The notes under the pieces were generated by a model. It saw only the letters and a list, made by a program, of their open reading frames with translations. It was not told the origin of the DNA and did no database searches. A DNA stretch of 60,641 bases from a virus. Its lineage: Duplodnaviria > Caudoviricetes. The stretch covers positions 1-60,641 of IMG/VR virus record IMGVR_UViG_3300018080_001657; one strand, given 5' to 3'. Positions 7,889 to 47,772 of this stretch are shown piece after piece (positions within the stretch are counted from its first letter, which is position 1; each line of letters begins with the position of its first letter). Position numbers and translations under genes: made by a program.

Positions 7889-8341
7889 ATGTGCGGAATG
7901 AAAACTGTAATAAATGGTTGTTTCGATCTGATAAACAAAGGTCATATAAACCTAATACACTTGGGCCTTAAGTATGCTCAAAGCGGAACGCTACTTGTAT
8001 TGATAAATTCTGACAAGTCAGTAAGAGAAATGAAAGGAACCCATAGACCGTATGACGATGTAGTTACACGGGGTAGCAATATTGAAAAAATTATTCACAA
8101 GTGGTGCCAAAAGAACAGAGACTATCTAAGAACTAAGGTAGAAATCTTTGGTACTGAAAAAGAACTAGAAAAGAAACTTGAAAGATTTCAGCCTGATATG
8201 ATTATACGTGGACACGATAGGCCCGTTGAAGAAATCACTGGCTATGGAAAATGGCCAATACTTATTGTGCCAAGAACTGTAGATGAGAATGGTATTGAAG
8301 TTTCAACAACACGAACTGCACAAGAAAGAGGAAAAGAATGA
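7889..8341 (+). CDS. RfaE domain II/HldC-like sugar-phosphate nucleotidyltransferase
   Basis: NGCFDLINKGH, INSDKSVREMKG..RP, STT. Confidence 0.8.
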   Translation: MCGMKTVINGCFDLINKGHINLIHLGLKYAQSGTLLVLINSDKSVREMKGTHRPYDDVVTRGSNIEKIIHKWCQKNRDYLRTKVEIFGTEKELEKKLERFQPDMIIRGHDRPVEEITGYGKWPILIVPRTVDENGIEVSTTRTAQERGKE

Positions 8342-8796
8342 AAGACGAAAGAGGCTACGATCCAATGCACAGGTTGATTTGTAAAAGTCATTCTTCTTTA
8401 GCACAAAAACACCATGAAACCAAAAAGAAATGGGGAGCAGAATTTTTAGTTAGAAACACAGAAAAATACTGTGTAAAAATTATGACCCTTGAGCCAGATA
8501 CACAATGTTCTATGCATTTTCATGAAGACAAAGAAGAAACATTTGTTCTTGTCTCTGGAGAAATGATTGTTGAAACAATCAATACTAAAAATGCAGAAAG
8601 AAGTGTTACACATCTTGTTGTGGTAGGAGATGCTGTAACACTTAAACCAGGCACACCACATACATTCTATTGTCCAGAAGGTGCTATCCAGACGGCAGTA
8701 TTTATTGAAGCTTCAACGGAGGACAGTCCAAATGATAGTTACAGAATCTTCCCGAGCAGAGGGAAAGATGTTGATCATGGGAGACACAATAATTGA
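8338..8796 (+). CDS. cupin, sugar-isomerase-like
   Basis: KKWGAE, CSMHFHEDKEETFVLVSG, GD..PGTPH, EAST. Confidence 0.8.
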   Translation: MKDERGYDPMHRLICKSHSSLAQKHHETKKKWGAEFLVRNTEKYCVKIMTLEPDTQCSMHFHEDKEETFVLVSGEMIVETINTKNAERSVTHLVVVGDAVTLKPGTPHTFYCPEGAIQTAVFIEASTEDSPNDSYRIFPSRGKDVDHGRHNN

Positions 8797-9646
8797 TGAA
8801 ACTTGGTATGTAGATGCCAGAAAACTTTCTCCCGAAGCACCAATTCCTGTAGGATATCTTACTTCTTCTGTCCCCCATCGCAGTCCTGGAGGAGCAAGCC
8901 TTGCTGCGTCTTATGCTCTAAAACAAGGCTATCCTTTTACCTTCTTGACAGCCACAAGTAACAACAATACAAGATGGCTAGCAGCCAAAGGCATGGACGT
9001 TCATAGTCTTCAGTCTGTAGACAACGTAACTAAGACACGATACATAGATGTAAATTCAAATTATCATCTCTTAAGAATCGACAACGACGAAGTAGTAACC
9101 TTCCCATCTGTCACTTCTGACAAACTATCCCCTGTTTTAGAAGAACTATTAGATAAAGCAACATGTCTTATTATGTTGGACTATCGCAAAGGCATATTCT
9201 CTAACCTAGAAGCAGTTAAAAAGATGATAGCCGAGGCAGTAAGAAGAAACCTACCGGTATATGTCGACACAAGATGCAGTCCATCAAAATTCAGGATGTC
9301 AACTTACCTTAAACTTAACGAAAAGGAATACGTTGCAGCTTGTGCTGCTCTTGGCTTTAACAATTATCAAGATCTTTGCAGTAACCTCAACATACCGAAT
9401 GTAATTGTTACTGAAGGTAAAAGAGGTGCAACCCTGCATTCTGTCACCAATGAAACATTCCACTCTACTCCAAGTAAGGACAGATACAAAGGAATTCCAG
9501 ATGTTACAGGATGCGGAGATGTATTTGATGTCAACTTCTGCTACTATTGTTTTCAGGAGGGTCTTCCACCGACAGAAGCACTGAAGCTCTCCGTAGAACG
9601 GGCAAGTGAGTATGCCCATACAACAATTGGAGACAGACTATGTTAA
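8768..9646 (+). CDS. RfaE domain I/HldA-like PfkB sugar kinase
   Basis: LIMGDTIID, LSPEAPIPV, PGGA, TKTRY, LRID, DYRKG, DVTGCGD; likely start ATG 8768. Confidence 0.85.
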   Translation: MLIMGDTIIDETWYVDARKLSPEAPIPVGYLTSSVPHRSPGGASLAASYALKQGYPFTFLTATSNNNTRWLAAKGMDVHSLQSVDNVTKTRYIDVNSNYHLLRIDNDEVVTFPSVTSDKLSPVLEELLDKATCLIMLDYRKGIFSNLEAVKKMIAEAVRRNLPVYVDTRCSPSKFRMSTYLKLNEKEYVAACAALGFNNYQDLCSNLNIPNVIVTEGKRGATLHSVTNETFHSTPSKDRYKGIPDVTGCGDVFDVNFCYYCFQEGLPPTEALKLSVERASEYAHTTIGDRLC

Positions 9647-9854: not shown

Positions 9855-10160
9855 ATGTCTAGATGTGTACATGCTCAGTCAGAGTACAAACTACATCAAC
9901 TACCACGATGTTCCAAATGCAAAGTAGAAATGCAACTTGTATTGGTACAATATGACAACAAACCAAAACCAGTTTGGGAGTGGGAGTGTCGTAAGTGCCC
10001 GAAAGCGGTTGCAAAACACAAGCTACAAGAAGCTCCTCCTTCAGCCTTCGAACAATTCCTAACAGAACGGTGTGAAAATGACCTCAAAGAAGCTATCAAA
10101 AGAAGAGAAAGCAACAAGGCAGCTCTGCAAGACATTAAACCAGCAAAATCTGACGAATAG
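9855..10160 (+). CDS. Zn-ribbon hypothetical protein
   Basis: CxxC...CxxC. Confidence 0.55.
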   Translation: MSRCVHAQSEYKLHQLPRCSKCKVEMQLVLVQYDNKPKPVWEWECRKCPKAVAKHKLQEAPPSAFEQFLTERCENDLKEAIKRRESNKAALQDIKPAKSDE

Positions 10161-10359
10161 GGAGATAGCGAATGTTTTACCCCAGTTTTTGTTTTCAATA
10201 GGGGCTTCGTTAGAAGATTGTAGTTTACAGAGCAGTGAAGAAGTGTTAAAAAGATATGCAGAAGAGCCAACATTCGGTAATGCATTGATGGCACAATCAC
10301 TTTGGATGAAAGAAACATGGGCATTGCCCAACACAGAAAGGGAAACGAAAGATGACTGA
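10072..10359 (+). CDS. hypothetical protein (start uncertain)
   Basis: Fills the gap to the next gene; overlaps upstream ORF. Confidence 0.5.
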   Translation: MKMTSKKLSKEEKATRQLCKTLNQQNLTNREIANVLPQFLFSIGASLEDCSLQSSEEVLKRYAEEPTFGNALMAQSLWMKETWALPNTERETKDD

Positions 10360-10897
10360 ACACTATGAAGAACGAGCAAGAAGAGAAAAAGCACCGATGC
10401 AGTACAGGATTTACAAAGGAATCAAAGGCAAGTCAGGAGCGATGCGACTGAACCTAAAGCGTCCTTATACAAATCCAGATCCAAAAAAATCAGAAGGTGT
10501 CCTGTTTTTAGAAATGGCACCATCTGTTGGACCAAATGATTATGACTGGGAGAACCAAAAAATCATCATGGCCCTAAGTATTGTGGACATCCCGAAAATT
10601 ATTCTTTATTTGAGAAGTCCGGGACATTCTTCCTTCGAACGAACCGATGGAAAACTTAAGTTGCTTCACGATAAAGGTGCTGGTACTGCTAAGAAAGGTC
10701 AAGATGTTAAGACACTTGAAATTGTCAAGTCTGACAGAACTGCAAATTTCTTATTCAACATGTACCAAAACTCAAACGGCAAAAACATCAGTGCCTCTGT
10801 TCCTGTCTCTCCTGATGAAGCAATCGTAATCGGTACACTCCTCCAAGCCGCCATTCCTGTCATTCTTGCCTGGACTGAAGGCCCTTATAACGCATAA
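10352..10897 (+). CDS. Whirly-family ssDNA-binding protein homologue
   Basis: IYKG.KGKSGAM, EGVLFLEMAPSVG..YDW, ALS, LHD...G..KTL, FN, VPVSPDE...IPVILAW are collinear with plant WHY motifs. Confidence 0.75.
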   Translation: MTEHYEERARREKAPMQYRIYKGIKGKSGAMRLNLKRPYTNPDPKKSEGVLFLEMAPSVGPNDYDWENQKIIMALSIVDIPKIILYLRSPGHSSFERTDGKLKLLHDKGAGTAKKGQDVKTLEIVKSDRTANFLFNMYQNSNGKNISASVPVSPDEAIVIGTLLQAAIPVILAWTEGPYNA

Positions 10898-11443: not shown

Positions 11444-11938
11444 ATGAAAGAAGTAACGTTTGTGGTATGGAATGCTTCACAGGAAGAACTAGAACTTGCC
11501 AACAAAATCAAGGACTATTTTATTAGTTTGTTTGATAGCGATATAAGCGTTAAAATTGACGACTTAAAAAATATTGGCGAAACAACATATGAAAATCTAT
11601 GTGTTGTTTTTGGTACTACAGCAAAAAATTATATCAACCACGATGTGCTATGGGAAGTTCCAGCGCTTTCTACAATGCTGCCAGGCGAAGGTTATGTAAA
11701 GAATAAGCGATCTGCTATGAGGACTCTGAGAAGGGTTGCTGAAGAGCTTAAAACAGAAAAAGAAGAGATCCCTATCACAACACATCTAGAGACGCCACAA
11801 GGAGTTACAGTGGGAAGTGAGGGTTATGACATTAATATTACAGAACAGGAAGTAGACCATCTAAAGAACCTTAAGAAGATTTTAGGCGGAGGCAAGATGG
11901 TTGTTATTAAAGGCGATATAAGAATAGAGGTAGAATAA
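11444..11938 (+). CDS. hypothetical protein
   Basis: 164-aa ORF with AAGGA RBS. Confidence 0.65.
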   Translation: MKEVTFVVWNASQEELELANKIKDYFISLFDSDISVKIDDLKNIGETTYENLCVVFGTTAKNYINHDVLWEVPALSTMLPGEGYVKNKRSAMRTLRRVAEELKTEKEEIPITTHLETPQGVTVGSEGYDINITEQEVDHLKNLKKILGGGKMVVIKGDIRIEVE

Positions 11939-12510
11939 TGAATGACATGTCAAGAATTTCCAAGAAACTTAAAGATACTACTGAGTTTCTTAATGAACTA
12001 GGCGGTTACCTAGATGAAAACTTTAAAATTGCTGGTGTTACAGGCAAGGGTCATTCTGTAGAAGAATGGAAAAGCCATTTTTTAGTTGAGATACCAGATG
12101 AAGTTACGTTTCCTGTGCTTGTCAAGCTAGCATCAGAAGTCTTTGAGAAGTACCAAAGAGCTGCATACTTTAGAGACAAACAAACTATTCAGATGTCTAT
12201 AATGGAACAAACACACAAAGAAAAACATTATAGTGCTTATCAAACAGCTCGAAATGAAAACGAACAAAAATTTGGCAAGCCACTAGCAGCTGAAAGTTGT
12301 AAAGTATCTGCTGCACTAGCAACCAAGGAGCTTGATGATGCTATATCAAATCAAAAAGTGGTACGAGACTTTTGGAACAAAACATGCGATACACTTACAG
12401 AACTGCGCAAACTTCTTGAACTTATGGGGTATGCCCTTAGTGGCGATGCTCGTATCAACCGGGACTTTGTAGTTAAAGGAAACAATAATGACGATTATAG
12501 CGGCAGCTGA
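11938..12510 (+). CDS. hypothetical helical protein
   Basis: 190-aa ORF coupled by TAATG. Confidence 0.65.
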   Translation: MNDMSRISKKLKDTTEFLNELGGYLDENFKIAGVTGKGHSVEEWKSHFLVEIPDEVTFPVLVKLASEVFEKYQRAAYFRDKQTIQMSIMEQTHKEKHYSAYQTARNENEQKFGKPLAAESCKVSAALATKELDDAISNQKVVRDFWNKTCDTLTELRKLLELMGYALSGDARINRDFVVKGNNNDDYSGS

Positions 12511-13030
12511 AGATAAAAGTGGTTATTGGATTGGTTCTGACAGCCATGGAATAGTACATAATATTAGTGTTGAATTAGGCCCTAAGCTTATAAAGAAAGA
12601 AAAATATGTCATAGGCTTTAGTAATTCATATAGAGTTAGAGATATTATTACAGAAAATAAACATTTTCCTAAAACTATAGGCTCAACAACAAGCCTACGA
12701 AAATTTAGAGACGTACTTAAAGAAGCTATGGTTAATGACGGTTGTATGCCTGTCGGAATGGACGGCGATACAGTTTTGCATCCAGTTAGTTTGGTTATTA
12801 TTTCACATAATGGTATTTATACAATAGATTGTGATTATCAAATGCACAAAGCAAAACAGTACACAACAATAGGAGCAGGAAGTGATGTCGCACTTGGTGC
12901 ACTAAGAGCTACACTTAATATATCAAAATCTGGTGCTGAAGCAGTAAAACAAGCAGTTGAAGCAGCAATATTCCATTCAACCAAATGTAGTGGCAATATT
13001 CATATTGAACACATACCTAGAAAGAGATAA
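12488..13030 (+). CDS. HslV/proteasome-beta-like Ntn hydrolase
   Basis: Starts M-T-I-I-A, GSDS, K, IGAGS..ALGAL, EAVKQAVEAA. Confidence 0.75.
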   Translation: MTIIAAAEDKSGYWIGSDSHGIVHNISVELGPKLIKKEKYVIGFSNSYRVRDIITENKHFPKTIGSTTSLRKFRDVLKEAMVNDGCMPVGMDGDTVLHPVSLVIISHNGIYTIDCDYQMHKAKQYTTIGAGSDVALGALRATLNISKSGAEAVKQAVEAAIFHSTKCSGNIHIEHIPRKR

Positions 13031-29726: not shown

Positions 29727-32177
29727 ATGAAACCAAGACTAATCAATCTTGAAGAAACTACAAGAGTAATCAGACCGTACTTAGAACAGTATCTACAAGA
29801 ACATGGGATTGATCCGTCAAAAAACTTTAGCTGTCTTAACCCAAAACATACAGATTCTTCTCCGTCTATGACGTGCAAACAAGTACCTGAGAGAGCATTC
29901 TGTTTTGGTTGTGGTTATACAGCTGACATCTTTGCCGCTGCAAGCTGTATTGAAGGAAAACCTAGTACTGGCATTGGATATATAGAAGACAATGTATTAT
30001 ATTTAGCAGAGAAATATGGCATTCAGGTCAAACTAAGTGACCTTACGCCAGAAGAACTTTATGAATACCGTACATATCAGGCATATAAAATGGCTGCTGA
30101 ACTAGTAGCTGACCCAAACTTTGGAGACTACTCGGTAGTTGACAAAGAAATTGACAGAAGAGGGTGGGACAAAAACAAAATAGCTGAGTGGGGCATTGGT
30201 ACAATTGATTTTAATGAGTTTAGAGAGAAACTAAAAGCTGCGGGCTATGAACCTAAGTTTCTTGGCGGAATAGACCTAGACAGATCAAATCTATTCAATT
30301 CAAACAACTTGTTGTTTACTGTATATGATGACCAGGGACGACCAGTAGGGTTTTCTGCTAAAAATCTTAAATACAATGGAGATGGTCATAGTGGACCTAA
30401 GTACATCAACACAAGAGGTACTGGCCTGGAGTGTGCAATCTTTAAGAAGGGCGAAAGACTCTATGGATATGAGATTGCCAAAGAAGCTCCAGACCCATTA
30501 TATATCTTTGAAGGCCAGGCAGATGTAATCACTGCCAGGCATCATGGCCTTATGAACTGTTGCTGTGGCATGGGTACAGCACTAACAGACCATCATATTA
30601 CACTGTTAAAGAAACATGGCTCTTTCAATATAGTTTTGGTATATGACTCTGATAAAGCAGGAGAGCTAGCGGCACAAAAAGCCTTAGATGAAAAATTTGG
30701 CAAAGAGAAAGACTTTAGGGTTAAGTTGTGTCAGCTGCCAGCTGGACAAGACCCAGATGAATTGATCAGAACACATGGATTCGATGAATTCGTAAGGCTT
30801 AAAAGATGGACTGCCTTCGAGTGGCGAATGATGAAGTTCGTAGAAGACTTTGGTGGCGATCTAGATGACGACCAGAGAAGAGAAGTAGCCGAGAAAATGA
30901 TTCCAATCATTGTTGCTGAGATGAGCCATATTCGACAAGAAGAAATGGCTAAACAAGTAGCAAAGATGACTGGCTATGACCTTACCACTATTGTGTCAGA
31001 AGTCAGAAGACAAAAGAACGAGAAAGATGCAGAGGTTCAAACCAAGAAGAAGAATCTTATTGAAGCACTGCTTACAGATGTAAAGAAGAATCCAAATGAT
31101 GCAGAGTTAGCACTGGCCCAGTGTCAAAATGCTATTAGTGACATCAATAAGTCTTTGCAGGTAGAGAACGAAGAGTCTTCTACTGTCTCTGCTATTGCTT
31201 CACTGAAAGAAGCAGATGAAATGAAGACAGGAGAATTTGCAGGCTTCTTCTTAAAGGCAGATGGACTTGGTGGTATTGGCGCTAGAATGGATGATGACTG
31301 GAAACGTGACAATCTTATGTTTGTTGGAGGCTCAGAGCAAGCTGGCAAGACTACTTTCTGTGCACAGTTGGCATATGAAATTGCTGACGATAAGAAGAAT
31401 GACGCTATTTGTATCTACCATTCTATTGATGATGCTAAAAAGTCTATCATTTACAAGTGGATATGCAACGCTTCTGAAGATAAAAGACTGACACTTAACA
31501 TGGTTAGCAATCCTAACTACTGGGCCTTACAGCCAGGCTGTGAATTCGTGCATGAGGCCAGAGAGAAGGCCTATCGCAAGGTCTTAAAGATGGTAAAGAA
31601 CGGTCAGCTAGTTGTAAAAGACTCAAGTGACGGATCTTCTGTTTCTTATGCCGAGAATGTAGTTAGGTATTACAGAGAACTGTATCCTGAAAAGAATATT
31701 GTGTTGTTTATTGATAACTTTCATAAGTTACCGGATTATTCTGAAATTCAAGGACACGAAAGAGTAAAAAGACTATCAAATCATTTGAAAAATATGGCCG
31801 TAGCACATAATATTACTATTATTTGTACTGTCGAGTACAGAAAGCTACAAGCAGGAGAGAAACCAACAAATCTAGCCATTGCAGAGTCACGTTCTTTGGC
31901 CTACGATTCTACTGTTATTGTTCACTTGCATAATGACATGCATCACAAGGGAGAACAGGAGTCTGTGCTCGTGCATCAAGATGAGGACGGTAAATTACTG
32001 CCAAGAATCTGGTGTAAGTTCGGTAAGAACAAAGTGTCTGGCTATGAAGGCAGAGAGTTCTTAGACCTGCATCCAGCTGGTGCCAGAATGTCTTCAGTAC
32101 AGATAGAGATTGCCGAACAAGAACAAAGAGACAGGCTAGCATATCTAAAAGAGAATCATGCAACAGAACAATATTAA
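29727..32177 (+). CDS. DnaG primase fused to DnaB-like helicase
   Basis: C..H...CxxC Zn finger, PKYINT, FEGQAD, GTALT, YDSD.AG, DPDE; GSEQAGKTT, FIDNFH, KNK. Confidence 0.9.
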   Translation: MKPRLINLEETTRVIRPYLEQYLQEHGIDPSKNFSCLNPKHTDSSPSMTCKQVPERAFCFGCGYTADIFAAASCIEGKPSTGIGYIEDNVLYLAEKYGIQVKLSDLTPEELYEYRTYQAYKMAAELVADPNFGDYSVVDKEIDRRGWDKNKIAEWGIGTIDFNEFREKLKAAGYEPKFLGGIDLDRSNLFNSNNLLFTVYDDQGRPVGFSAKNLKYNGDGHSGPKYINTRGTGLECAIFKKGERLYGYEIAKEAPDPLYIFEGQADVITARHHGLMNCCCGMGTALTDHHITLLKKHGSFNIVLVYDSDKAGELAAQKALDEKFGKEKDFRVKLCQLPAGQDPDELIRTHGFDEFVRLKRWTAFEWRMMKFVEDFGGDLDDDQRREVAEKMIPIIVAEMSHIRQEEMAKQVAKMTGYDLTTIVSEVRRQKNEKDAEVQTKKKNLIEALLTDVKKNPNDAELALAQCQNAISDINKSLQVENEESSTVSAIASLKEADEMKTGEFAGFFLKADGLGGIGARMDDDWKRDNLMFVGGSEQAGKTTFCAQLAYEIADDKKNDAICIYHSIDDAKKSIIYKWICNASEDKRLTLNMVSNPNYWALQPGCEFVHEAREKAYRKVLKMVKNGQLVVKDSSDGSSVSYAENVVRYYRELYPEKNIVLFIDNFHKLPDYSEIQGHERVKRLSNHLKNMAVAHNITIICTVEYRKLQAGEKPTNLAIAESRSLAYDSTVIVHLHNDMHHKGEQESVLVHQDEDGKLLPRIWCKFGKNKVSGYEGREFLDLHPAGARMSSVQIEIAEQEQRDRLAYLKENHATEQY

Positions 32178-37816: not shown

Positions 37817-39808
37817 ATGGCTCAACGTGTTCATGGTGTTATAAAACCTAACAGGCGTGGCAATGTACCTGCTAGAGTAGTGAACGTCCAGTCCAAAAAG
37901 AAAAATGAAAATAATAAGATTCGTCTTGATAAACTAACATCTGATAATCCTGTTATCTGTGTTAAGAGAAGACTTGGTGGCATTGGTGATGTCATTATGA
38001 CAACACCTCTTCTTAAAGAAATAAAAAGACTAATTCCTGATTGTCATCTAATATATGCTACAGACCTAGAGTATGCAGACGGAGCACTAGGAGATATAAT
38101 TAGACATAACCCATATGTTGATGAGCTTATACCAAATTCGCAAATCGCAGAAAGTACCTATGCCTATAGTGTAGATGTTACTGCTACTGGTTTAGCAAAA
38201 GAAAAAGCAGGACAAATACCTCCAAACAGAATTGATATGTTTGCAGAAGCTGTAGGTGTATGCGTAGGTGCAGATCCAGTTCCTGTATATGAAGTGACTG
38301 ATGAAGAAAGAGAGATGGCAACAAAGCGTATTGAAGCTGATTTCCTTGGACCAGCAAAAAGTAGAGAAGATATAAAGTTAATTGTAATTCAAGTAAGAAG
38401 TAACGACGCCAGAAGAACATGGCCTCTTGATCATATGGATAAATTGGCTGATATGTTAGCAAAAGACCCAAGCATTAGAGTTCTTTTGTGTGACTGGGGA
38501 GATAAAGCAGATAGATGGGAATCAAGAGAACGGGTATGGGCCATTAAGAATGAAAGCATTGTAGACATAGCTGCGATTATAGAACAATCTGATTTAGTTA
38601 TCTGTCCAGACAGTAGTATTCTTCATCTTGCTGGTGCGTTAAGTAAAAAGATTGTTGCTATCTTTGGGCCAATACCTCCTGAGAGCCGTATTAATCATTA
38701 TACAAATGCACATGCTGTTACATTAGGTTTGTCTTGTCAGTATTGCTGGTATACTCCAATGTGTATTAGAAGCAACAACACAAAATTTGATTGTCTAACA
38801 AAACTTACACCAAAAATGGTACACGACGTGGCAATAAAGAAAATGGCAAATGAATATATTGTAGAAACGAAAGTAGAATATGGTAAAAATATGACTACAG
38901 TCGGGGGACAAGATCCTGTTATATTAGTCAAAAGAACAACAGGAGGCATTGGCGATCTTGTTATGGCTACAGCAGGCATAGAAGCACTTAAGGAAAAGTT
39001 TCCTAACAAGAAATTACATGTTGCAGTAAATAAAAATCTACATCCAGTACTAGAAAACAATCCATATATTGACCATGTGCTTGATATTAATCAGCCAATA
39101 AATGCAAAAATCTATCATATGATTTTTGATATTTCTCATCCTTGTGCGCGATACGAAGTAGCAAGACTAAGAGCCAGAAAGCCTGTTGAAAAGAATAGAG
39201 TTGAAATTTATGCAGAAGCACTTGGGTCAAGAGAAATTATTAAAGATCTTAAACCAAGGATACATTTTACAGAAGAAGAACTTAAAGAAGGAAAAAAGTT
39301 TTTATTAGAAAATGGACTGAACCCAAACAAAAAGACTATTGCTATTGCAACTAACAGTACAGAACTTTACAGAGACTGGCCAGAAGAGAATTACACAGTG
39401 CTATTTGAAGCATTGAAAGACAAGTTTAATATTGCAATATTCCACAAAGAACGTAAAAACTTTTACCCTGGAATTATAGATGCTCGTGGTCTTCCATTAA
39501 GAAAAGCAATTAGTACCATGGCAACATGTGATGGTCTTATCACTGTAGACACAGGGTACTTGCATATTGCAGCAGCATTAAATATACCAACAGTGGCATT
39601 GTTTGGTCCTATTGATTACAAAGCAAGATGTAAAGGATATAAGAACACAACAGTTATTGTGTCAAATCTAGACTGTATTCCTTGTTGGCGTAATGGCACA
39701 ACAAAATGTAAACATACTGGTTTAGTAAAATCTTATTCTAGATGTATGGAAAATATTCATGTTAAACAAGTAATTAAAGTAGCACTTACAAAATTTAAAG
39801 GAATATAA
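37817..39808 (+). CDS. tandem GT9 (heptosyltransferase-like) glycosyltransferase
   Basis: Two units each with GGIGD, NPYVD/NPYID, R.WP, DS/DT..HxAxAL, FGP, CxxCW. Confidence 0.9.
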   Translation: MAQRVHGVIKPNRRGNVPARVVNVQSKKKNENNKIRLDKLTSDNPVICVKRRLGGIGDVIMTTPLLKEIKRLIPDCHLIYATDLEYADGALGDIIRHNPYVDELIPNSQIAESTYAYSVDVTATGLAKEKAGQIPPNRIDMFAEAVGVCVGADPVPVYEVTDEEREMATKRIEADFLGPAKSREDIKLIVIQVRSNDARRTWPLDHMDKLADMLAKDPSIRVLLCDWGDKADRWESRERVWAIKNESIVDIAAIIEQSDLVICPDSSILHLAGALSKKIVAIFGPIPPESRINHYTNAHAVTLGLSCQYCWYTPMCIRSNNTKFDCLTKLTPKMVHDVAIKKMANEYIVETKVEYGKNMTTVGGQDPVILVKRTTGGIGDLVMATAGIEALKEKFPNKKLHVAVNKNLHPVLENNPYIDHVLDINQPINAKIYHMIFDISHPCARYEVARLRARKPVEKNRVEIYAEALGSREIIKDLKPRIHFTEEELKEGKKFLLENGLNPNKKTIAIATNSTELYRDWPEENYTVLFEALKDKFNIAIFHKERKNFYPGIIDARGLPLRKAISTMATCDGLITVDTGYLHIAAALNIPTVALFGPIDYKARCKGYKNTTVIVSNLDCIPCWRNGTTKCKHTGLVKSYSRCMENIHVKQVIKVALTKFKGI

Positions 39809-39810
39809 AA

Positions 39811-40689
39811 ATGTCAAACATTCCTAGCTCTGTATTTGTAACTTTAGGTGGTGGTCTTGGTGATGTATTTTATACGTATGTAAACGGTAAAAATGGATGG
39901 GGTTATATAGAGTCTTTAAAAAAGACATATCCAAGTATTAAAATAAAAGCTATGTGTGCAACTCATAATCCACAAACATTAGACTTTATTGAAAATAATC
40001 CATATATTGATTCAATAGTTGAATTTGGATGGGTATTAGACGCAACAGAATTATGGAAAAAATACAAAGGAGATGCTGTACGTCTTGATAAACAAAAAGA
40101 CTTACTTAAAAAATTAAAAGATAAAAAACCTAATGTTTATTTAAGTCAAACAGACAAAGAAACTGTTAACAATATAACTAGTAGTGGAAATTTTGTGCTT
40201 CTTCATCCTTTTGCAGGAGAGCCACATCGTAGAGCACTGCCAGCTGAAGAATATATACCATTGATCGATAGTATTATAGATAAACTTGGATTAAATGTTG
40301 TTCTTATTGGCGGTAGCTATACAAGAAGTAATCGAGTCCACAAAGAACTAAAGACAGAATACTTAGATTACAATAGAAGTGGACTGCATAATATTATTGG
40401 CAAATCAAATGCTCGTATATGTTTGACATTGGCAAGAAAACAAACATGCTTTTTGGGTTCGTGGTCAGCGTACTCTTGTGCTTCATGGCTGTACAATAAG
40501 CACACAACAATATTGCTCCAAGAAAATGACGTAGAGAAACTTAATAAGAAACTAAGTAAAGGACAAAGATGGGACGGAGCAAAATGTGACATGATAACAA
40601 CCAAAGGACCATATCATAATCCAAAAGACACAAACTTCAAGAAGGTTCGAGAAGAAGCCTTTAACAAGATACAAAATGAAACAAAATAA
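39811..40689 (+). CDS. divergent GT9-like glycosyltransferase
   Basis: GGGLGD, NNPYID, LLHPFA, VLIGG, NIIGKSN. Confidence 0.7.
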   Translation: MSNIPSSVFVTLGGGLGDVFYTYVNGKNGWGYIESLKKTYPSIKIKAMCATHNPQTLDFIENNPYIDSIVEFGWVLDATELWKKYKGDAVRLDKQKDLLKKLKDKKPNVYLSQTDKETVNNITSSGNFVLLHPFAGEPHRRALPAEEYIPLIDSIIDKLGLNVVLIGGSYTRSNRVHKELKTEYLDYNRSGLHNIIGKSNARICLTLARKQTCFLGSWSAYSCASWLYNKHTTILLQENDVEKLNKKLSKGQRWDGAKCDMITTKGPYHNPKDTNFKKVREEAFNKIQNETK

Positions 40690-41497
40690 AGTATATTTAG
40701 GGTTGATTGGAGGGCTTGGGGATGTAATTTATCAGTATTTACATGACCCAGCATGGCAATCTCTTGCTGACTACAAAACAAAGAACCCTAATACTTGTAT
40801 CAAGGCTATCGTAGTCTCACACAACCCTCTAGCCCATCAAATCGTAGAATTAAACCCTTATATAGATGAAGTAGAACAACATCCTCCAAAGAGAGAGATG
40901 AGAGATAAAAACTGGAAGCATCACGAAGTCATACATCAGTATGCACAAGGAGAATCAAGACTTATCGGGTCTAACCTAACACACAATAGACCTGTATTCT
41001 ATCTAAAGAACTCAGAAGTTGAGTTAGTAAATCAATTAGTTGTTGGCAAGACAGCTGTAGTACATCCATTTGCATCAGAAGAAGCAAGAGTTTGTATCCC
41101 ACCAAAGGACTATAGATCTATTGTCGACAAATTAAGACACAAAATGTTCAATGTAATTATGCTTGGCGGAAGCTATGTAAAATCATTTGGAGAAGAAGAA
41201 AAGTATAATAAAGTCGAGAAGTTCTTGTACCCTAAGACAGATGGGTTCACGAATCTAATAGGCAAAACAAATGCAAGAACTTCATTAGCCTTAGTAACTA
41301 ATGCTGATTTGTTTGTTGGAACTTGGTCTTGTTATGGTGTAACAGCATGGATGCACGGTATAAAATCAATAATATGTGTGCCTGACAAAATGTCTGAAGG
41401 ATGTTATAAAATACATGATGGTAAATATAAAAACCATAACAAAGCAGATAAGATAATTAAAGAATCAAATAGCAAAATGATAGTGAGGCTAATATGA
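40676..41497 (+). CDS. divergent GT9-like glycosyltransferase
   Basis: [34 protein letters not shown]. Confidence 0.7.
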
Positions 41498-42522
41498 AGA
41501 AGGCATTAATAACTGGTATCACAGGACAAGATGGATCTTACCTGGCTGAATTGCTTCTTGATAAAGGTTATGAAGTACATGGAATAATTCGTCGTACAAG
41601 CAGCTATGTGAGACAAAGAATTGATCATTTGTCAATGGACCCAGAGATAAAAGACAAAACATTGTTTTTGCATTATGGAGACATGACAGACGGCTCAAAT
41701 ATCTCAAGACTAATTGAGAAAATTATGCCTGATGAGGTTTATAACCTGGCTGCGCAATCACATGTAAAGATTTCTTTTGATGTACCTGAATATAGTGCAC
41801 AGGTTGATGGCATTGGAACCATTAGGCTGCTAGATGCCCTTAGAGAATTATGCCCAAAGGCTAGGTTTTATCAAGCTTCTACATCTGAGCTGTACGGACT
41901 AGTACAGGAGACTCCACAGAAGGAAACTACGCCCTTCTATCCTCGTTCCCCTTATGCAGTAGCTAAACTATATGCATACTGGATCACAAGGAACTACAGA
42001 GAGGCTTATGGCATGTTTGCCTGTAATGGCATTCTGTTTAATCATGAGTCTGAGAGACGTGGAGAAAACTTTGTTACTAGAAAAATCACAATGTCAGTGG
42101 CACGTATTGCTCGTGGCCAACAAGACAAAATATCTTTAGGAAATCTATCTGCATTAAGAGACTGGGGATATGCGCCTGATTATGTAAGAGGAATGTGGAT
42201 GATGCTCCAGCAAGATGAGCCAATGGATATTGTGATGGCCACAGGAGAGCAACACTCTGTAGAAGACTTCTGTCTTGCAGCATTTGATGCTATTGGAATG
42301 CCCATTAAGTTCAAAGGAGAAGGTGTTGATCGTAAAGGGTATAACATAAATGGTGTTGTACGTGTAGATGTTAATCCAAAGTTCTTTAGGCCAACAGAAG
42401 TACAAACACTACTAGGTGATCCAACAATGGCTAAAGAAGTTTTAGGTTGGGAACCAACTATTAGCTTCAAAGAATTAGTTACTCGCATGGTAGTTAACGA
42501 TCTTAATGAGATAAAACAATGA
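41494..42522 (+). CDS. gmd: GDP-mannose 4,6-dehydratase
   Basis: [51 protein letters not shown]. Confidence 0.97.
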
Positions 42523-42758
42523 GCACTGGAAATAACATAGACAGGTTAATTGATATAAATAACAAACTGTGGCATGAAGCAACACAGATAAAAGACTTTG
42601 ATAACAAACCAATCAAAGGACTCTCTTCAGAAGAAAGAGTTAAATGTTTCCTTGCAGTTAGAAAACTTAATTCTAGTCGATCTGCAATTAGAGCAGAGAT
42701 AGATAGAGAATTTGATGACGGAGTTGACGAATCTAAAGTCAACTATTCTGGAGAGTAA
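42519..42758 (+). CDS. small DUF4254-like protein
   Basis: IDRL...N.KLWH...LN..R...ID. Confidence 0.55.
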
Positions 42759-42759
42759 A

Positions 42760-42975
42760 ATGCTAACATATAGTATCGGAGAAATGGTTGATAAATTATG
42801 TGTAATTCATCTTAAGGTTTGGCATCTAGAAGAACAAATTCAAAAAGCAGAAGCAGATAGCCTAGACGCAAAAGAAATAGAAAAGTTATGTGACAAAGTA
42901 GTAAATCTAAATGCCTACAGGATGAAGATCGTCAAATCAATAGACGAATACTTTGAGGCAAAGGCAAATGGATGA
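42760..42975 (+). CDS. small DUF4254-like protein
   Basis: SIGEMVDKL...LKVWHLEE...LN..R...ID. Confidence 0.6.
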   Translation: MLTYSIGEMVDKLCVIHLKVWHLEEQIQKAEADSLDAKEIEKLCDKVVNLNAYRMKIVKSIDEYFEAKANG

Positions 42976-43654
42976 AGCTCTTATTAAAAAAACAATCAAT
43001 GGGGTTCAGAATTCTTCACTAGAATACATGAAGAGATATAGCTTATGTGATTGTGTTACTCTTGGATTCCCCGAAACATATAACGCTATGGGATTAGGAC
43101 TAGATGTATTCAACAGCAAGATAGAAGCTGGTAAGAAATACATCATGCCATATGCAAACAAAGTATCTGAGGAAGACATTAGAATCCTTAGACCTGTCGG
43201 CTACAAGACTCCCAAAGAAATTGAGACATTCTTATGGAGTCCATTTCATGATTCCACAAGCACATTCTATGATCTAGGTGACGACGTCATTCATTCTTTT
43301 AGATTTAAAGGACAGTGGTTAAGGAAATATAGCTTTGTAAAGCAACGTTCTGAACCATTGTTTACAGAAGTTATACGGTCAATTAAAACAATGAAAACAA
43401 AGATATATAACATGTGGGGATCAGATGTAAACTGCATGTTGTTGTTCTACGATAACTCTAGGTTGAATAATAAGACTGTCAAGAAGAGAATGGAAAGATA
43501 TAACGAAATATCACTAGAAGTATTGCATGACTGGCATGAATTGAAAGTTGAGCTGACAGAAGAAGACAAAGAAGGAAAAGAATGGGAGCATTATAAGAGG
43601 CCAGCAAGAATGAATTTATTAGATCAAATCAAGAAGATAGAAGACAATGCATAG
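42968..43654 (+). CDS. hypothetical protein
   Basis: Long ORF within the glycan cluster. Confidence 0.6.
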   Translation: MDEALIKKTINGVQNSSLEYMKRYSLCDCVTLGFPETYNAMGLGLDVFNSKIEAGKKYIMPYANKVSEEDIRILRPVGYKTPKEIETFLWSPFHDSTSTFYDLGDDVIHSFRFKGQWLRKYSFVKQRSEPLFTEVIRSIKTMKTKIYNMWGSDVNCMLLFYDNSRLNNKTVKKRMERYNEISLEVLHDWHELKVELTEEDKEGKEWEHYKRPARMNLLDQIKKIEDNA

Positions 43655-44507
43655 TAAATTCTATGTACATACTTGTGGAGGAATGGGAGACCATTATCTA
43701 GGATACTTCAACCCAAACTGCAAAAAATATGGACTTGGTTTTATTGAACAGCTTAAAGAAGAATACCCTAACTCAACTGTAAAACTTATTGCTCATCCTG
43801 CCAACCCACAAGGACCAGAGTTCTTTAGATACCATCCACATATAGATGAGATTGAAACACATCCATGGGTTGCAGGGCTAGGGAACTGTAAGAACAAAGA
43901 GAAAGAAGCAAAAGGATATATAGAGCTAGAAGAATTTGGTAAAGAGAAGGAATGGGCAAAGAGAAAGAATGAAACGATATATACTTCTGAAGAAGATGAC
44001 AAGTTCTTAAAAACAATCTTAAATAAAAAACCATTTGTTGTTTTACATCCATTCGCCAGTGATAAACAAAGAATGCCCATGCAACCAAGACAATTTTTTC
44101 CTTTGGTTGATAGTATTATCAAAGACTATGGCATCAAAGTAATTGTTTTAGGTGGCTCATACAAGAGAACAAGAAATAGACTAGATCAAATCAAAGAAGA
44201 ATTCCCCTATGAGAGAGAAGGTTTAATCAATCTTATCGGCAAGACCAATAGCAGAACAGCAGCTAAAATAATACACTCATCGAAGGTATTAATTGCTAAT
44301 CATTCTGGGCTATGGTGTGCTGCCTCAATAGGAGGAATAAAACTTATAGCAATGCACAGGAATCCAGAGTACCATAGCAAATGGATCAAATCTATCTTTG
44401 TAGATGATGGAGCTTCTTCTGTTGTCATAGATGTAAATGAAAAGATTAGAAAAAACATAATTAGAGCAAATATCATAGAGCGACTAGATAAAATCTTGAG
44501 GGCATAA
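43647..44507 (+). CDS. divergent GT9-like glycosyltransferase
   Basis: GGMGD, HPHID, VLHPFA, VLGG, NLIGKTN, NHSG. Confidence 0.7.
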   Translation: MHSKFYVHTCGGMGDHYLGYFNPNCKKYGLGFIEQLKEEYPNSTVKLIAHPANPQGPEFFRYHPHIDEIETHPWVAGLGNCKNKEKEAKGYIELEEFGKEKEWAKRKNETIYTSEEDDKFLKTILNKKPFVVLHPFASDKQRMPMQPRQFFPLVDSIIKDYGIKVIVLGGSYKRTRNRLDQIKEEFPYEREGLINLIGKTNSRTAAKIIHSSKVLIANHSGLWCAASIGGIKLIAMHRNPEYHSKWIKSIFVDDGASSVVIDVNEKIRKNIIRANIIERLDKILRA

Positions 44508-44508
44508 A

Positions 44509-45312
44509 ATGGATAAAGTATTTATAAAGAAAAACCACACGACAAAACAACAAGAATACTATAAGAAATTCAGAAACAACAAACACTGGGCAAAAGAATC
44601 ATCTAGGACTGGCAACCATTATCTTAATACATATCAGAACCTTAGAGATATCAACAAGCATGTTTTTCCTTATAACTTTGTATCGAATACAGACACAATA
44701 GTTAGTTGTGGGTGTGCACGGATGTATTTAGACATGGGAATATCTGACCCATTTATATTTGCAACTCTTGCTAAGAAAGTCATACTGTTTGAGGCAGACC
44801 CAATCAACATTCCTGCTGTTAGTTCTTATATAGAGAATAACAATGTAGAAAATGTAGAGCTTATATCTAAGGCAGTATGGGACAAGAATGAAGAGGTCAT
44901 GTTCTCTTCCTACAAGAAAACACCTGGTGGATCAAACCATATAGGTGGTTCGAATAGAAACATCCTAGTGCCTATTGAAGGAATAACACTAGACGCAGCA
45001 ATCAAAGAACCAGTTGACCTCTTACATCTCACAATCAATGGCATTGAGCACAAAGTGCTAAAGACAGCAGAATCACTGTTGGAGAACAAACCAATTGTGA
45101 CAGTAGCAATGTTTAACAAGAGTCATGAGATGTTTAAGAACAGGAAGAAAGCAGTAGAGTTGTTGTATGACTCTGGATATTACATTGGATGGGCAAAAGC
45201 ATCCTCTATTCCATGGGAAGATTTTAATTTCTGGTTTGCTATTGCCACACCAGACAAAGATCAATTACAATCACTAGGCTTTGAGCAGACATCAGAACTG
45301 TTCCCTGTATAG
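44509..45312 (+). CDS. FkbM-family methyltransferase
   Basis: VILFEADP, KAVWD, ITLD, VDLL..TINGIE..VL. Confidence 0.75.
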   Translation: MDKVFIKKNHTTKQQEYYKKFRNNKHWAKESSRTGNHYLNTYQNLRDINKHVFPYNFVSNTDTIVSCGCARMYLDMGISDPFIFATLAKKVILFEADPINIPAVSSYIENNNVENVELISKAVWDKNEEVMFSSYKKTPGGSNHIGGSNRNILVPIEGITLDAAIKEPVDLLHLTINGIEHKVLKTAESLLENKPIVTVAMFNKSHEMFKNRKKAVELLYDSGYYIGWAKASSIPWEDFNFWFAIATPDKDQLQSLGFEQTSELFPV

Positions 45313-45322
45313 AGAGGCACAT

Positions 45323-45967
45323 ATGTTTTTATCACCACGAAAAGAAGAAGTACCTTTTATATTGAACAACATCAAGAGTGGAAACATTCTTAATATTGGT
45401 GGAGCACAAGGAGAATGGAAAAGCAAACTTCTAGATAAAGGTCACCAGATGACAATTGTTGACGTAAGGAAATGTGTTTCCAACAGGAAGAATTGTACTG
45501 TTGTGCAGGCAGATGTAAGAAACGTGACACCAGAGTCCATAGGAACATTTGACAATATCATATTGATGTCTACTCTAGAGCATATCTCATTGCCTCTCTT
45601 CTCTAAAGACAACACAAAGACTTGGCAAGATGGACCGTGGAAAGAACAATTGAAAGTATTCAAGCACTGTACAACACTGCTTAAAGAGAACGGCATTATT
45701 ATATTTACTATTCCATGTGGGACACCAACAAAAGCACCAAGACATAAGCTGCTATATAACGAAGAGATGATTGAAGCAATAAAAGCAGAATGTGAAGTAG
45801 AGAAAGAACATTACATTCTTAGGCGTCCTGATAAATGGGAACACAGATCTGAATTTCCAATAGAATGTTGTTCTCCTGAAGAAGAAGCCGAGAGAATAGC
45901 AGACTCAACAGGAAGATTTGCATCTGCAATCTGTCTCATGATATTAAAAAAACCAAAAGAGGACTAA
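45323..45967 (+). CDS. class I SAM-dependent methyltransferase
   Basis: ILNIGG, QADV, FD.I..STLEHI, LKENG..IFTIP. Confidence 0.8.
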   Translation: MFLSPRKEEVPFILNNIKSGNILNIGGAQGEWKSKLLDKGHQMTIVDVRKCVSNRKNCTVVQADVRNVTPESIGTFDNIILMSTLEHISLPLFSKDNTKTWQDGPWKEQLKVFKHCTTLLKENGIIIFTIPCGTPTKAPRHKLLYNEEMIEAIKAECEVEKEHYILRRPDKWEHRSEFPIECCSPEEEAERIADSTGRFASAICLMILKKPKED

Positions 45968-46711
45968 ATGCCACTTCCAAACTTTATTATTATTGGTGAG
46001 ACCAAGTGTGGTACCACCTCAATGTATGACAATCTTATTCAACACCCACAGATATTGCCAACAGTTGGAAATGGGAATGATAGGATTGTTGATGCTAGTG
46101 TGCCGCTCGGAGTAAAAGAACTCAGATTCTTTGATCGTAATTATCATAGAGGCTGGGACTGGTACAAGTCATGCTTCCCCGAATGCCCTGAAGGCTGTAT
46201 TACAGGTGAAGCAACACCTATGTATCTTAATAGAACATTAGCATTAGACCGTATTGCTTCTGTGCTTCAAGATAACGTAAAGCTCATCGTGATGATAAGA
46301 AATCCAGCTAAAAGACTAGTGTCACATTTCTATCACAATCAAAGTATCAACAAGGATTGGCATATAAAATATCCAACAATATATGAATTCTGGCACAAGG
46401 TATCAGATCCAGATTATCATATGATTGAAAGAGGTATCTATTGGAAATCATTATTTAACTTGCAGAACTTTTTCAACAATGAGAATATACGTGTAGTTAT
46501 ATTAGAAGACATGCTTACGAGGCCACAAAAGGTATTGAATAATTTGTTTGATTTTCTAGAAGTAGACAAGACAGACACGATAGTTCCTGCTCATTCAAGA
46601 AAGAGCCAGAATAAACAAAAAGAAGCTGCACCTGATTATGTTTATGACTTTTACAAAACACACAATCTAATATTAGAAGAAATGTTACAGACAAAACTAT
46701 GGACAAAATAA
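45968..46711 (+). CDS. PAPS-dependent sulfotransferase
   Basis: PNFIIIGETKCGTTS, KELRFFD, GEATPMY, RNP..R.VSH. Confidence 0.9.
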   Translation: MPLPNFIIIGETKCGTTSMYDNLIQHPQILPTVGNGNDRIVDASVPLGVKELRFFDRNYHRGWDWYKSCFPECPEGCITGEATPMYLNRTLALDRIASVLQDNVKLIVMIRNPAKRLVSHFYHNQSINKDWHIKYPTIYEFWHKVSDPDYHMIERGIYWKSLFNLQNFFNNENIRVVILEDMLTRPQKVLNNLFDFLEVDKTDTIVPAHSRKSQNKQKEAAPDYVYDFYKTHNLILEEMLQTKLWTK

Positions 46712-47772
46712 ATCTACTTGAACCAGTAATACCGCCTAAGTCAAAAGAGTATGTGAATGACTGCTTAGACACGGGATGGCTATCATACTCAGGAAGCTAC
46801 GTAAAGCAACTTGAGAACCAAGTTAAAGACTTTGTAAGAACTAAGTCTGCTGTAGCTATGGGAAACGGCACAGGAGCTTTGTGGGTAGCACTAAAAACAT
46901 TTAGTATAGGACCAGGAGACTTTGTAGTAGTGCCGTCAATGACATTTGTAGCTACTGTAAATGCAGTTATTCAGACAGGTGCCACTCCAGTGTTTGTAGA
47001 CTGTAACAATAATCTACAAATAGATATAAATTTTTTACGTGATGCTATCGAAAAGCTAAAACCAAAAGCAATTATTCCTGTGCACATACTAGGAAACTTA
47101 TGCGACATGGACACAATTAAAAGTCTTGCCTATAACGACTGTATACCTGTAATTGAAGATGCAGCACAAGCATTAGGATCTATAGACAAATGTAATTGTT
47201 ATGCTGGTACAAGAGGAACAGTTGGAATGTATTCGTTTAGTTTCAACAAACTTATTGCTGCTGGACAAGGCGGAATGTTAGTCACAAGAGAAGAAAGACT
47301 TGGAAATCATATGAAGTATTTCTCTTTACAGTCAAAAGATAATGCTGAGATGTATGTTCATGATGAAGCTGGCTTTAATATGGGCATGTCAAATATAAAC
47401 GCAGCATTAGCCTGTGGGCAAATGGAAAACATAGATGAGACATTAAAGCAGAAGAGACGTGTACGTGACAAATATGTAGAACTTCTAGGCAAAGAGAACA
47501 TGTACTATCAAGAAGGTGGAAACGGGTGGTTAAATGCCTACAAGACAAACAAGGCCTATAAAGAGGTATCTTTAAGATGCAAAAGAGCTGGAATTCAAGT
47601 AAGACCGCTCTTCTATCCTAATCACAAACAAACAAGCTTCAATAAATATCCATATTTTGGAAACCATATGGCAGAAAACAAATATAAAACCACCGTATGT
47701 ATTCCATCGAGCCCAAACCTTACAGACGAACAAATCCAACATGTAGTAAAATCAATTAGAGGTGATAAATAA
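46699..47772 (+). CDS. DegT/DnrJ/EryC1/StrS aminotransferase (perosamine synthase/LegC-like)
   Basis: NGTGAL, VPSMTFVAT, PVHILG, IEDAAQALG, SFSFNKL..GQGG, GFN. Confidence 0.92.
   Translation: MDKINLLEPVIPPKSKEYVNDCLDTGWLSYSGSYVKQLENQVKDFVRTKSAVAMGNGTGALWVALKTFSIGPGDFVVVPSMTFVATVNAVIQTGATPVFVDCNNNLQIDINFLRDAIEKLKPKAIIPVHILGNLCDMDTIKSLAYNDCIPVIEDAAQALGSIDKCNCYAGTRGTVGMYSFSFNKLIAAGQGGMLVTREERLGNHMKYFSLQSKDNAEMYVHDEAGFNMGMSNINAALACGQMENIDETLKQKRRVRDKYVELLGKENMYYQEGGNGWLNAYKTNKAYKEVSLRCKRAGIQVRPLFYPNHKQTSFNKYPYFGNHMAENKYKTTVCIPSSPNLTDEQIQHVVKSIRGDK

Follow-up and report, generated by a model that had tools for sequence, protein, structure and literature searches.

Whirly proteins have been called plant-specific (PMC9070903, PMC12230644, preprint 10.64898/2026.10.24.761589), and the family has been inferred to have arisen in the green plant ancestor (PMC11135702). 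The tetramers of plant Whirlies bind single-stranded DNA (ssDNA) with little sequence specificity and shield resected DNA from error-prone annealing (PMC3245945, PMC7549692). [quoted passage not shown] WHIRLY1 has been listed as one of the eukaryotic proteins that replaced prokaryotic nucleoid architects (10.1101/2024.05.06.592765), and plant WHIRLY proteins have been termed DNA/RNA-binding (PMC9070903). On the phage side, the only Whirly found in print is ChmC, whose likeness to the family is, according to its authors, one of fold alone (PMC11077065), and phage-encoded sequence homologues of Whirly were not described in the titles and abstracts among the literature matches listed. The gene considered here encodes such a sequence homologue. 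It lies in a stretch of 60,641 nucleotides of viral DNA (IMG/VR record IMGVR_UViG_3300018080_001657), the whole of which is referred to as the window, and it has the following features:

10352..10897, + strand: Whirly-family gene with an ATG start, encoding a 181-amino-acid protein that is a minimal Whirly domain (Pfam PF08536)

An initial annotation, made from the letters of the window alone, had proposed a phage homologue of plant Whirly proteins at these positions and had noted that the family is usually described as belonging to plants and algae, which agrees with PMC9070903, PMC12230644, PMC11135702 and preprint 10.64898/2026.10.24.761589. The proposed homology is borne out by sequence, by fold and by the predicted oligomer. 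A search of Pfam-A with the window protein returned a single and significant match, to Whirly (PF08536), with an expectation value (E) of 5.8e-15 and a score of 55.8 bits, the curated cut-off being 23; the alignment places residues 30-161 on model positions 7-134 of 136, and a six-frame search agrees. Among the chains of the PDB searched with phmmer, the nearest are StWhy2 K67A (E 1.5e-8), StWhy2 (2.7e-8) and PBF-2 p24 (5.3e-7), followed by AtWHY1 (1.6e-5), AtWHY3 (2.5e-5) and AtWHY2 (1.9e-4); the best of these alignments are collinear across approximately 160 residues, and the other three of the nine matches listed are annexins with E of at least 0.37. Every phage peptide cited in the initial annotation (IYKGIKGKSGAM, EGVLFLEMAPSVGPNDYDW, LLHDKGAGTAKKGQDVKTL, FLFNM, VPVSPDE and IPVILAW) is present in the translation of 10352-10897, and the plant strings that it set beside them resemble real plant sequences, for instance Tarenaya WHY1 (P0201), which reads IYKGKAAL, EGFVLLEFAPAAGVRQYDW, FFHDPNKGRSDEGKVRKVL, HFFNL and IPVTRAEL...LPYLMGW in the alignment. 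PHROGs holds no family for the protein. The likeness to Whirly is far beyond chance, and the open reading frame (ORF) at 10352-10897 encodes a true, if minimal, member of the family.

Comparison with the plant Whirlies of known structure (StWhy1, which is PBF-2 p24, StWhy2 and AtWHY1/2/3; PDB 1l3a, 3n1h, 4koo, 4kop and 4koq) shows what is shared and what is not. The phage and plant proteins are 20-29% identical, belong to the same Pfam family over the whole domain, and have in common the predicted fold, the four-fold tetramer through two helices that is predicted for the phage protein, the Y-K-G at the first hairpin, the YDW and HD(P) motifs, E156 and W174. Residues H106, E156 and W174 are invariant in an alignment of 24 sequences from phages, metagenomes, a picozoan, a fern and seed plants, in which Y64 and W66 (of YDW), D107, G49 and others are conserved at 90% or more. 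Among 93 diverse members of the family H106 is again invariant, and Y21, K22, G23, G29, G49, Y64, W66, D79, E156 and W174 reach at least 90%. Only the plant proteins have some 60-90 extra N-terminal residues, which serve organelle targeting, and an acidic C-terminal ...LEW extension, whereas the window protein has no transit peptide, starts about 15 residues ahead of the domain and ends 7 residues past the conserved W174.

The other difference concerns the KGKAAL motif, the second lysine of which drives assembly of plant Whirlies into 24-mers (PMC3245945). Alignment with MAFFT sets the plant YKG-KAAL against YKG-IKGK-SGAM in the window protein, that is, with a 4-residue insertion after YKG, and because of this insertion the second lysine has no clear equivalent. 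Green-algal and Marchantia WHIRLY-like proteins are also described as being without KGKAAL in a 2022 review (PMC9070903), so the window protein, which has no canonical KGKAAL, no targeting peptide and no acidic or aromatic extension, lies outside the higher-plant WHY1/WHY2/WHY3 subgroup and not outside the family. Two other viral copies come close to the plant motif: the one at L010:8007-8468 (the same as P0193) has an un-inserted YKPKAAV, and the one at L015:1351-1860 has YSKGSAA as well as HDPGKG as in plants. Between the two repeats of the domain, the clade of the window protein also has an additional stretch that includes a short helix (residues 93-98).

The structure of the window protein was modelled with AlphaFold2 from an alignment of 39 of the 54 close homologues, 15 being omitted. 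The model has a mean predicted local distance difference test score (pLDDT) of 88.6 and a predicted template modelling score (pTM) of 0.82, and it consists of two beta-beta-beta-beta-alpha repeats, with strands and helices in the order expected, the first with strands at residues 18-21, 30-36, 50-60 and 71-75 and a helix at 79-88, and the second with strands at 102-107, 118-126, 133-141 and 144-152 and a helix at 154-171. When the model was compared with the PDB by Foldseek, 12 plant-Whirly chains fell within ranks 1-16, with template modelling scores of 0.63-0.71 for the query (TMq) and 0.69-0.78 for the target (TMt). The best match is AtWHY1 (4koo_B; E 1.2e-10, TMq 0.70, TMt 0.77), and 1l3a, 4koq and 3n1h score alike, so that AtWHY1, PBF-2 p24 and StWhy2 are the structures closest to the predicted fold; the plant Whirlies are followed by MRP1/2 (E 2e-5) and then by PUR-alpha (2e-4). 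Prediction of a four-copy complex gave scores of 0.92, 0.92 and 0.91, against 0.00 for the best of three controls, with at least 92% contact agreement between runs and a partner pLDDT of at least 86. The predicted interface comprises the helices at 77-94 and 153-176 plus the N-terminal segment, and each copy contacts two neighbours in a ring-like arrangement. The window protein is thus predicted by modelling to be a homotetramer of the four-fold 'whirligig' type.

The window protein is one of a large family. A word-indexed search found 54 proteins at 40-100% identity, all matching PF08536 and all metagenomic, on contigs of up to 198 kb, and an exhaustive HMMER search of 1.84 billion cluster representatives returned 255 representatives at E of 1e-3 or below, 110 at 1e-10 or below and 20 at 1e-30 or below; among the 150 of these 255 matches that were listed, most are 150-200 amino acids long. 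A scan of IMG/VR driven by an alignment located relatives at 12 loci, on contigs of 39-198 kb, and one further record was reached via P0198; L012 and L013 agree in gene order and in the lengths of their ORFs and may represent two samplings of a single phage. Scans of viral contigs with the window protein, P0180 or P0174 as single queries gave no match where the alignment-based scan succeeded, and a homologue search with the picozoan sequence P0187 returned only itself. Four family members (the window protein, P0198, P0193 and the copy in L006) served as tblastn queries against 50,697 deposited phage records, and none had a match; P0198 had none in plasmids either. Cellular prokaryotic genomes yielded none with one pattern from alignment A1 or with P0198, which is a weak test of absence. 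Structural matches among viral proteins were found in BFVD, the best being UniProt A0A6J5NR37 (141 amino acids, E 1.1e-8, TMt 0.81, 26% identity), which carries the automatic name 'Whirly transcription factor [uncultured Caudovirales phage]', and the second being A0A172Q074, an unnamed 121-amino-acid protein of the cultured Acinetobacter phage vB_AbaM_ME3 (E 3.8e-6, TMt 0.80). These two proteins are the best viral structural matches to the window protein but are shorter than it and distant in sequence, and no paper was found that discusses either. The finding is in this respect less fresh than first appears, given an automatic Whirly name on a phage protein in UniProt and the published fold of ChmC. 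In one lineage of large (approximately 130-200 kb) uncultured tailed phages, Whirly belongs to the old core genes, and a large, diverse and syntenic phage family of true sequence homologues contradicts the description of Whirly as plant-specific.

What else these phages encode bears on function. The window carries a recombinase gene 6.2 kb downstream of the Whirly gene on the same strand:

17075..19138, + strand: bacterial-type RecA with an intein and a LAGLIDADG endonuclease (PF00154 at 393 bits, RecA_C, Intein_splicing and LAGLIDADG_2; UvsX-like recombinase in PHROGs)

RecA, always above the cut-off for PF00154, is found in all 14 Whirly-bearing viral records (the window and 13 others), in each case downstream of Whirly on the same strand at a distance of 3.7-30 kb, and within 15 kb in 12 of the 14. 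A bacterial-type RecA system alongside Whirly is thus common to plants and the window, nuclear-encoded in the former and phage-encoded in the latter. The Intein_splicing and LAGLIDADG_2 matches of the window sit between the RecA core and RecA_C, and RecA matches in two pieces also occur in the related records G002 and G004. SSBs were searched for in the window and in 5 of the 13 other records, one of which is complete with terminal repeats (197.7 kb, G001) and one 91% complete. The canonical SSB profile PF00436 matched neither the window nor any of these 5 related records, and matched 10 of 14 control genomes; phrog_44, which is presumably an SSB family, likewise matched none of the 5 and matched the same 10 bacterial controls. 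The profiles for gp32 (PF08804) and the Enc34-type SSB (PF10991) also gave nothing in the 5 related records, negatives that carry little weight because no positive control was matched. OB-fold SSBs (PF00436; T4 gp32, PF08804) have the job proposed here for Whirly, the coating of ssDNA in company with a RecA-type recombinase, and the bacterial SSB is a homotetramer, but their fold is unrelated and the phage Whirly has neither a flexible linker nor an acidic C-terminal tip.

Taken with the predicted structure, these associations make it probable (roughly 0.7) that the window protein is an ssDNA-binding tetramer used in phage replication or recombination. By analogy with the plant organellar Whirlies, the tetramer would bind ssDNA without sequence preference and would coat the ssDNA that arises in phage replication and recombination, or in recombination-dependent replication or repair. 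It may further act together with the bacterial-type RecA that the phage encodes, shielding ssDNA and favouring strand exchange that is accurate, and such a RecA-accessory role has a little under an even chance of being correct; that Whirly may fill the job of the absent OB-fold SSB in this lineage is put forward more tentatively. The ssDNA or recombination factor envisaged in the initial annotation is accordingly a plausible role from genomic context, with RecA in 14 of 14 records and no OB-fold SSB in the 5 of 5 tested. The phage Whirly also offers a simple system in which ssDNA handling and the modulation of RecA could be followed, because it is a bare domain, RecA is always co-encoded and no ordinary SSB was detected; modulation of RecA by Whirly is a currently active question for plant organelles.

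Several observations weigh against a role in ssDNA coating and recombination. Linkage to recombination genes is loose, because the Whirly gene directly follows sugar-metabolism genes and the ribonucleotide reductase (RNR) gene sits before RecA. The presence of RecA in every record does not amount to 14 independent observations, because the records share gene order and belong to one lineage, and the absence of SSB rests on four profile families, so that a divergent OB-fold could hide among the unannotated ORFs. SSBs recruit their partners through an acidic C-terminal tip, and by a simple motif test no tip of this type is present in the window protein, in any of the 54 close homologues or in any of the 146 representatives. 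The canonical KGKAAL is broken by four residues. The high score of the predicted tetramer may reflect the model's memory of Whirly, because solved Whirly tetramers exist. In calibration, 20 of 30 proteins whose solved structures are pairs of one chain attained the mark used for complex scores, as did 1 of 23 whose solved structures are single chains; these counts come from two copies with their own alignments and are only a rough guide to a four-copy run. Finally, Whirly-fold proteins can bind RNA, as do phage ChmC, MRP1/2 and plant WHIRLY.

The last point leads to the alternative that the window protein binds RNA, acting as an mRNA or small-RNA chaperone for phage gene expression in the manner of ChmC or MRP1/2. 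ChmC (PhiPA3 gp61, PhiKZ gp67) is likewise a phage-encoded Whirly-fold homotetramer that binds single-stranded nucleic acid; it prefers RNA (dissociation constant (Kd) of 58 nM for single-stranded RNA against 184 nM for ssDNA), has a role in mRNA handling and is required for infection (PMC11077065). MRP1/2, described as binding guide RNA, form the next group behind the plant Whirlies in the Foldseek comparison with the PDB, and the conserved neighbours of the phage gene (C2, C1 and C3, below) have no known DNA-metabolism domain. However, in sequence and structure the plant Whirlies, which bind ssDNA, are much nearer to the window protein (E 1e-10, TM-score of about 0.7) than MRP1/2 are (E 2e-5, TM-score of 0.5-0.6), and the published description sets ChmC apart, in that its sequence has no detectable likeness to known proteins, each repeat holds three strands and the C-terminus is a disordered, N/G-rich tail of 50-70 residues (PMC11077065), whereas the window protein passes the Pfam threshold for Whirly, has four strands per repeat and has no tail. 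With RecA always encoded nearby and no SSB found in the records searched, an RNA chaperone is decidedly improbable. An architectural or regulatory DNA-binding protein, whose task would be the compaction or marking of DNA or, as a transcription factor, the control of promoters of the phage or its host, is a very improbable explanation of the gene. In plants, WHIRLY1 compacts the nucleoids of plastids; its first description was as a transcription factor, and it has been reported at PR-gene promoters (PMC7209962, PMC9070903), and the phage gene stands at the border of an auxiliary sugar-metabolism block and a replication block; yet compaction has been ascribed to the PRAPP motif of monocot WHIRLY1 (PMC7209962), which is missing from the window protein, as is a clear equivalent of the lysine needed for 24-mer assembly (PMC3245945), and no promoter- or operator-like feature is conspicuous around the gene. 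On the + strand, scans for promoters and terminators there did not exceed the shuffled expectation, with 4 promoter-like sites where 4.8 were expected.

The existence of a phage family bears on where the plant Whirlies came from, and two trees were built. The first, a quick tree of 160 rows, comprised the window protein, 10 viral copies, 134 of the 146 listed representatives, 6 close homologues and 9 eukaryotic sequences; 12 representatives of fewer than 145 amino acids were omitted, and two among the 134 (P0167 and P0187) were relabelled as eukaryotic. All 11 eukaryotic rows lie on one side of a branch supported at 88 by the Shimodaira-Hasegawa-like approximate likelihood ratio test (SH-aLRT), and all 11 viral rows and 132 representatives lie opposite. 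The more careful tree, of 75 hand-picked rows and with a bootstrap that was not fully settled, recovers the eukaryotic group with an ultrafast bootstrap (UFBoot) of 99 and SH-aLRT of 90 (98% of bootstrap trees contain it) and, with the picozoan set aside, the plants at 100/98. The rows nearest to the eukaryotes are P0180, P0188 and P0198, which group together at 99/95 and are joined to the eukaryotes by a split of 87/74; P0198 lies on a 195-kb contig and is recorded as a hypothetical protein from 'Acinetobacter sp.'. Certain rows coincide: P0055 is identical to L003 and P0193 to L010, and P0073/L004 and P0183/L012 are indistinguishable over the alignment columns kept. The picozoan sequence P0187 (EukProt, Picozoa sp.) is a Whirly transcript with an N-terminal extension that groups with plants and may be a contaminant; it lies outside Chloroplastida, where PMC11135702 places the origin of the family.

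One explanation, of which the initial annotation had raised a version, is that the plant and algal Whirlies descend from a recombination protein of large RecA-encoding phages that was acquired by an early archaeplastid ancestor. The phage family's depth and synteny, together with the precedent of phage-derived organellar enzymes, are suggestive of a phage origin, and if correct this would parallel the accepted phage derivation of the organellar RNA polymerase and Twinkle; it is nevertheless somewhat doubtful as it stands, since the direction of transfer is unreadable from a tree that is unrooted and poorly resolved along the backbone of its phage side. The single eukaryotic group on one branch (99/90, 98% of bootstrap trees) fits either direction, and so would agree with phages having gained Whirly from an early alga or other eukaryote, or with both having inherited it from an unsampled cellular lineage. 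That more distant families of the Whirly fold are eukaryotic (MRP1/2) or both eukaryotic and bacterial (PUR-alpha) also favours an ancestry of this kind, which is unlikely given the great diversity of the phage side (at least 134 representatives retrieved at 50% identity, their end branches being some 0.6 substitutions per site long), the synteny kept across members 29-37% identical to the window protein, the scant chance that phages of bacteria have of sampling nuclear genes of algae, and the accepted phage derivation of several organellar replication proteins (PMC12230644, PMC6554949). Recent capture of a plant or algal gene by a phage was considered and rejected on the 20-29% identity to plant proteins, the depth of the family and the gene order retained at 29-37% identity. 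The origin of Whirly thus becomes a question that rooted phylogenies can address. Should a phage origin prove true, the description of the family as plant-specific would be wrong, the Whirly-RecA partnership, at present being reconstituted for plant organelles, would be a much older viral invention inherited by plants, and phages would provide a minimal system for learning how Whirly tetramers steer RecA to accurate recombination.

Calling and clustering of ORFs across the window and the other loci, 13 sources in all, revealed a conserved block in the order C2-Whirly-...-C1-C3, of which the members in the window are as follows:

10072..10359, + strand: C2, a small gene immediately upstream of Whirly, encoding 95 amino acids with a predicted four-helix fold; homologues at 10 other loci
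11444..11938, + strand: C1, a downstream neighbour encoding 164 amino acids; present in the window and at 10 loci (11 of 13 sources)
11938..12510, + strand: C3, a downstream neighbour encoding 190 amino acids; in 8 of 13 sources

A conserved small partner gene upstream is not known for the plant Whirlies. In the window and 6 other loci the junction between the C2 stop and the Whirly start ranges from -14 to +1 nucleotides, and the 8-nucleotide overlap found in the window fits translational coupling of the two genes. The AlphaFold2 model of C2 (pLDDT 86) consists of 4 helices and gave no Foldseek match in the PDB at E of 0.001 or below; in searches of the PDB with profiles, C1 gave nothing below E 0.2 and C3 gave no match, and none of the three belongs to a Pfam or PHROG family. 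The profile searches revealed no Rad52-like annealase beside Whirly. A further ORF of 180 amino acids at 12488-13030 (+ strand; cluster C32) is conserved in L002 and has a weak proteasome/HslV-like match (PF00227, 21.6 bits, below the cut-off of 22.4). In the distant clade L005-L011, additional genes occur near the Whirly block, namely a ClpP-like protease, a 590-amino-acid AAA+ ATPase (phrog_8638), DUF1257 and a conserved ORF of about 65 amino acids, with coordinates such as L006:6484-7179 and L006:12064-14498.

The window is a whole IMG/VR virus record, with a CheckV completeness of 28% and ORFs that are dense and mostly co-directional. Its phage nature is supported by its PHROGs and Pfam content, by terminase matches in two nearly complete relatives, one of them above the Pfam cut-off, and by the nearest ESM Atlas clusters, which are labelled mostly Uroviricota. 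Megablast of 12 kb of the window found no match in the 50,697 deposited phage records, and its DnaE is at most about 36% identical to anything in them. With nothing similar deposited, phage-type genes and Uroviricota neighbours, the source is taken to be a large uncultured tailed phage of an undescribed lineage. Further features, assigned from PHROGs and Pfam with the exception of the tRNA genes, are:

118-209 and 1466-1551, + strand: two genes for tRNA-Ser, with anticodons TGA and GGA, where the record begins, the second alone passing the Rfam gathering score
13043-15511: RNR large subunit
Elsewhere in the window: ThyX and NUDIX proteins
21647-26027, + strand: DnaE-type polymerase in two pieces around a LAGLIDADG ORF
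26027-27145: Mre11/SbcD-like phosphoesterase
29727-32177: primase-helicase
Minus strand: weak tail-fibre and baseplate matches

The polymerase gene is split into a piece with the PHP domain and N-terminal part (21647-22810) and a piece with the rest (23601-26027), with the LAGLIDADG ORF at 22820-23617 between them; a search of the window with Rfam gave only the one tRNA at the gathering score, and no group I intron at the split dnaE. Two blocks of sugar-nucleotide or lipopolysaccharide (LPS)-type genes, at 7889-9646 and at 37817-47772 (+ strand), include a cytidylyltransferase, a cupin, a pfkB-like kinase, two GT9 heptosyltransferase-like proteins, a GDP-mannose 4,6-dehydratase (484 bits) and a DegT aminotransferase, and give a hint that the host is Gram-negative and that the cell surface or the virion is modified.

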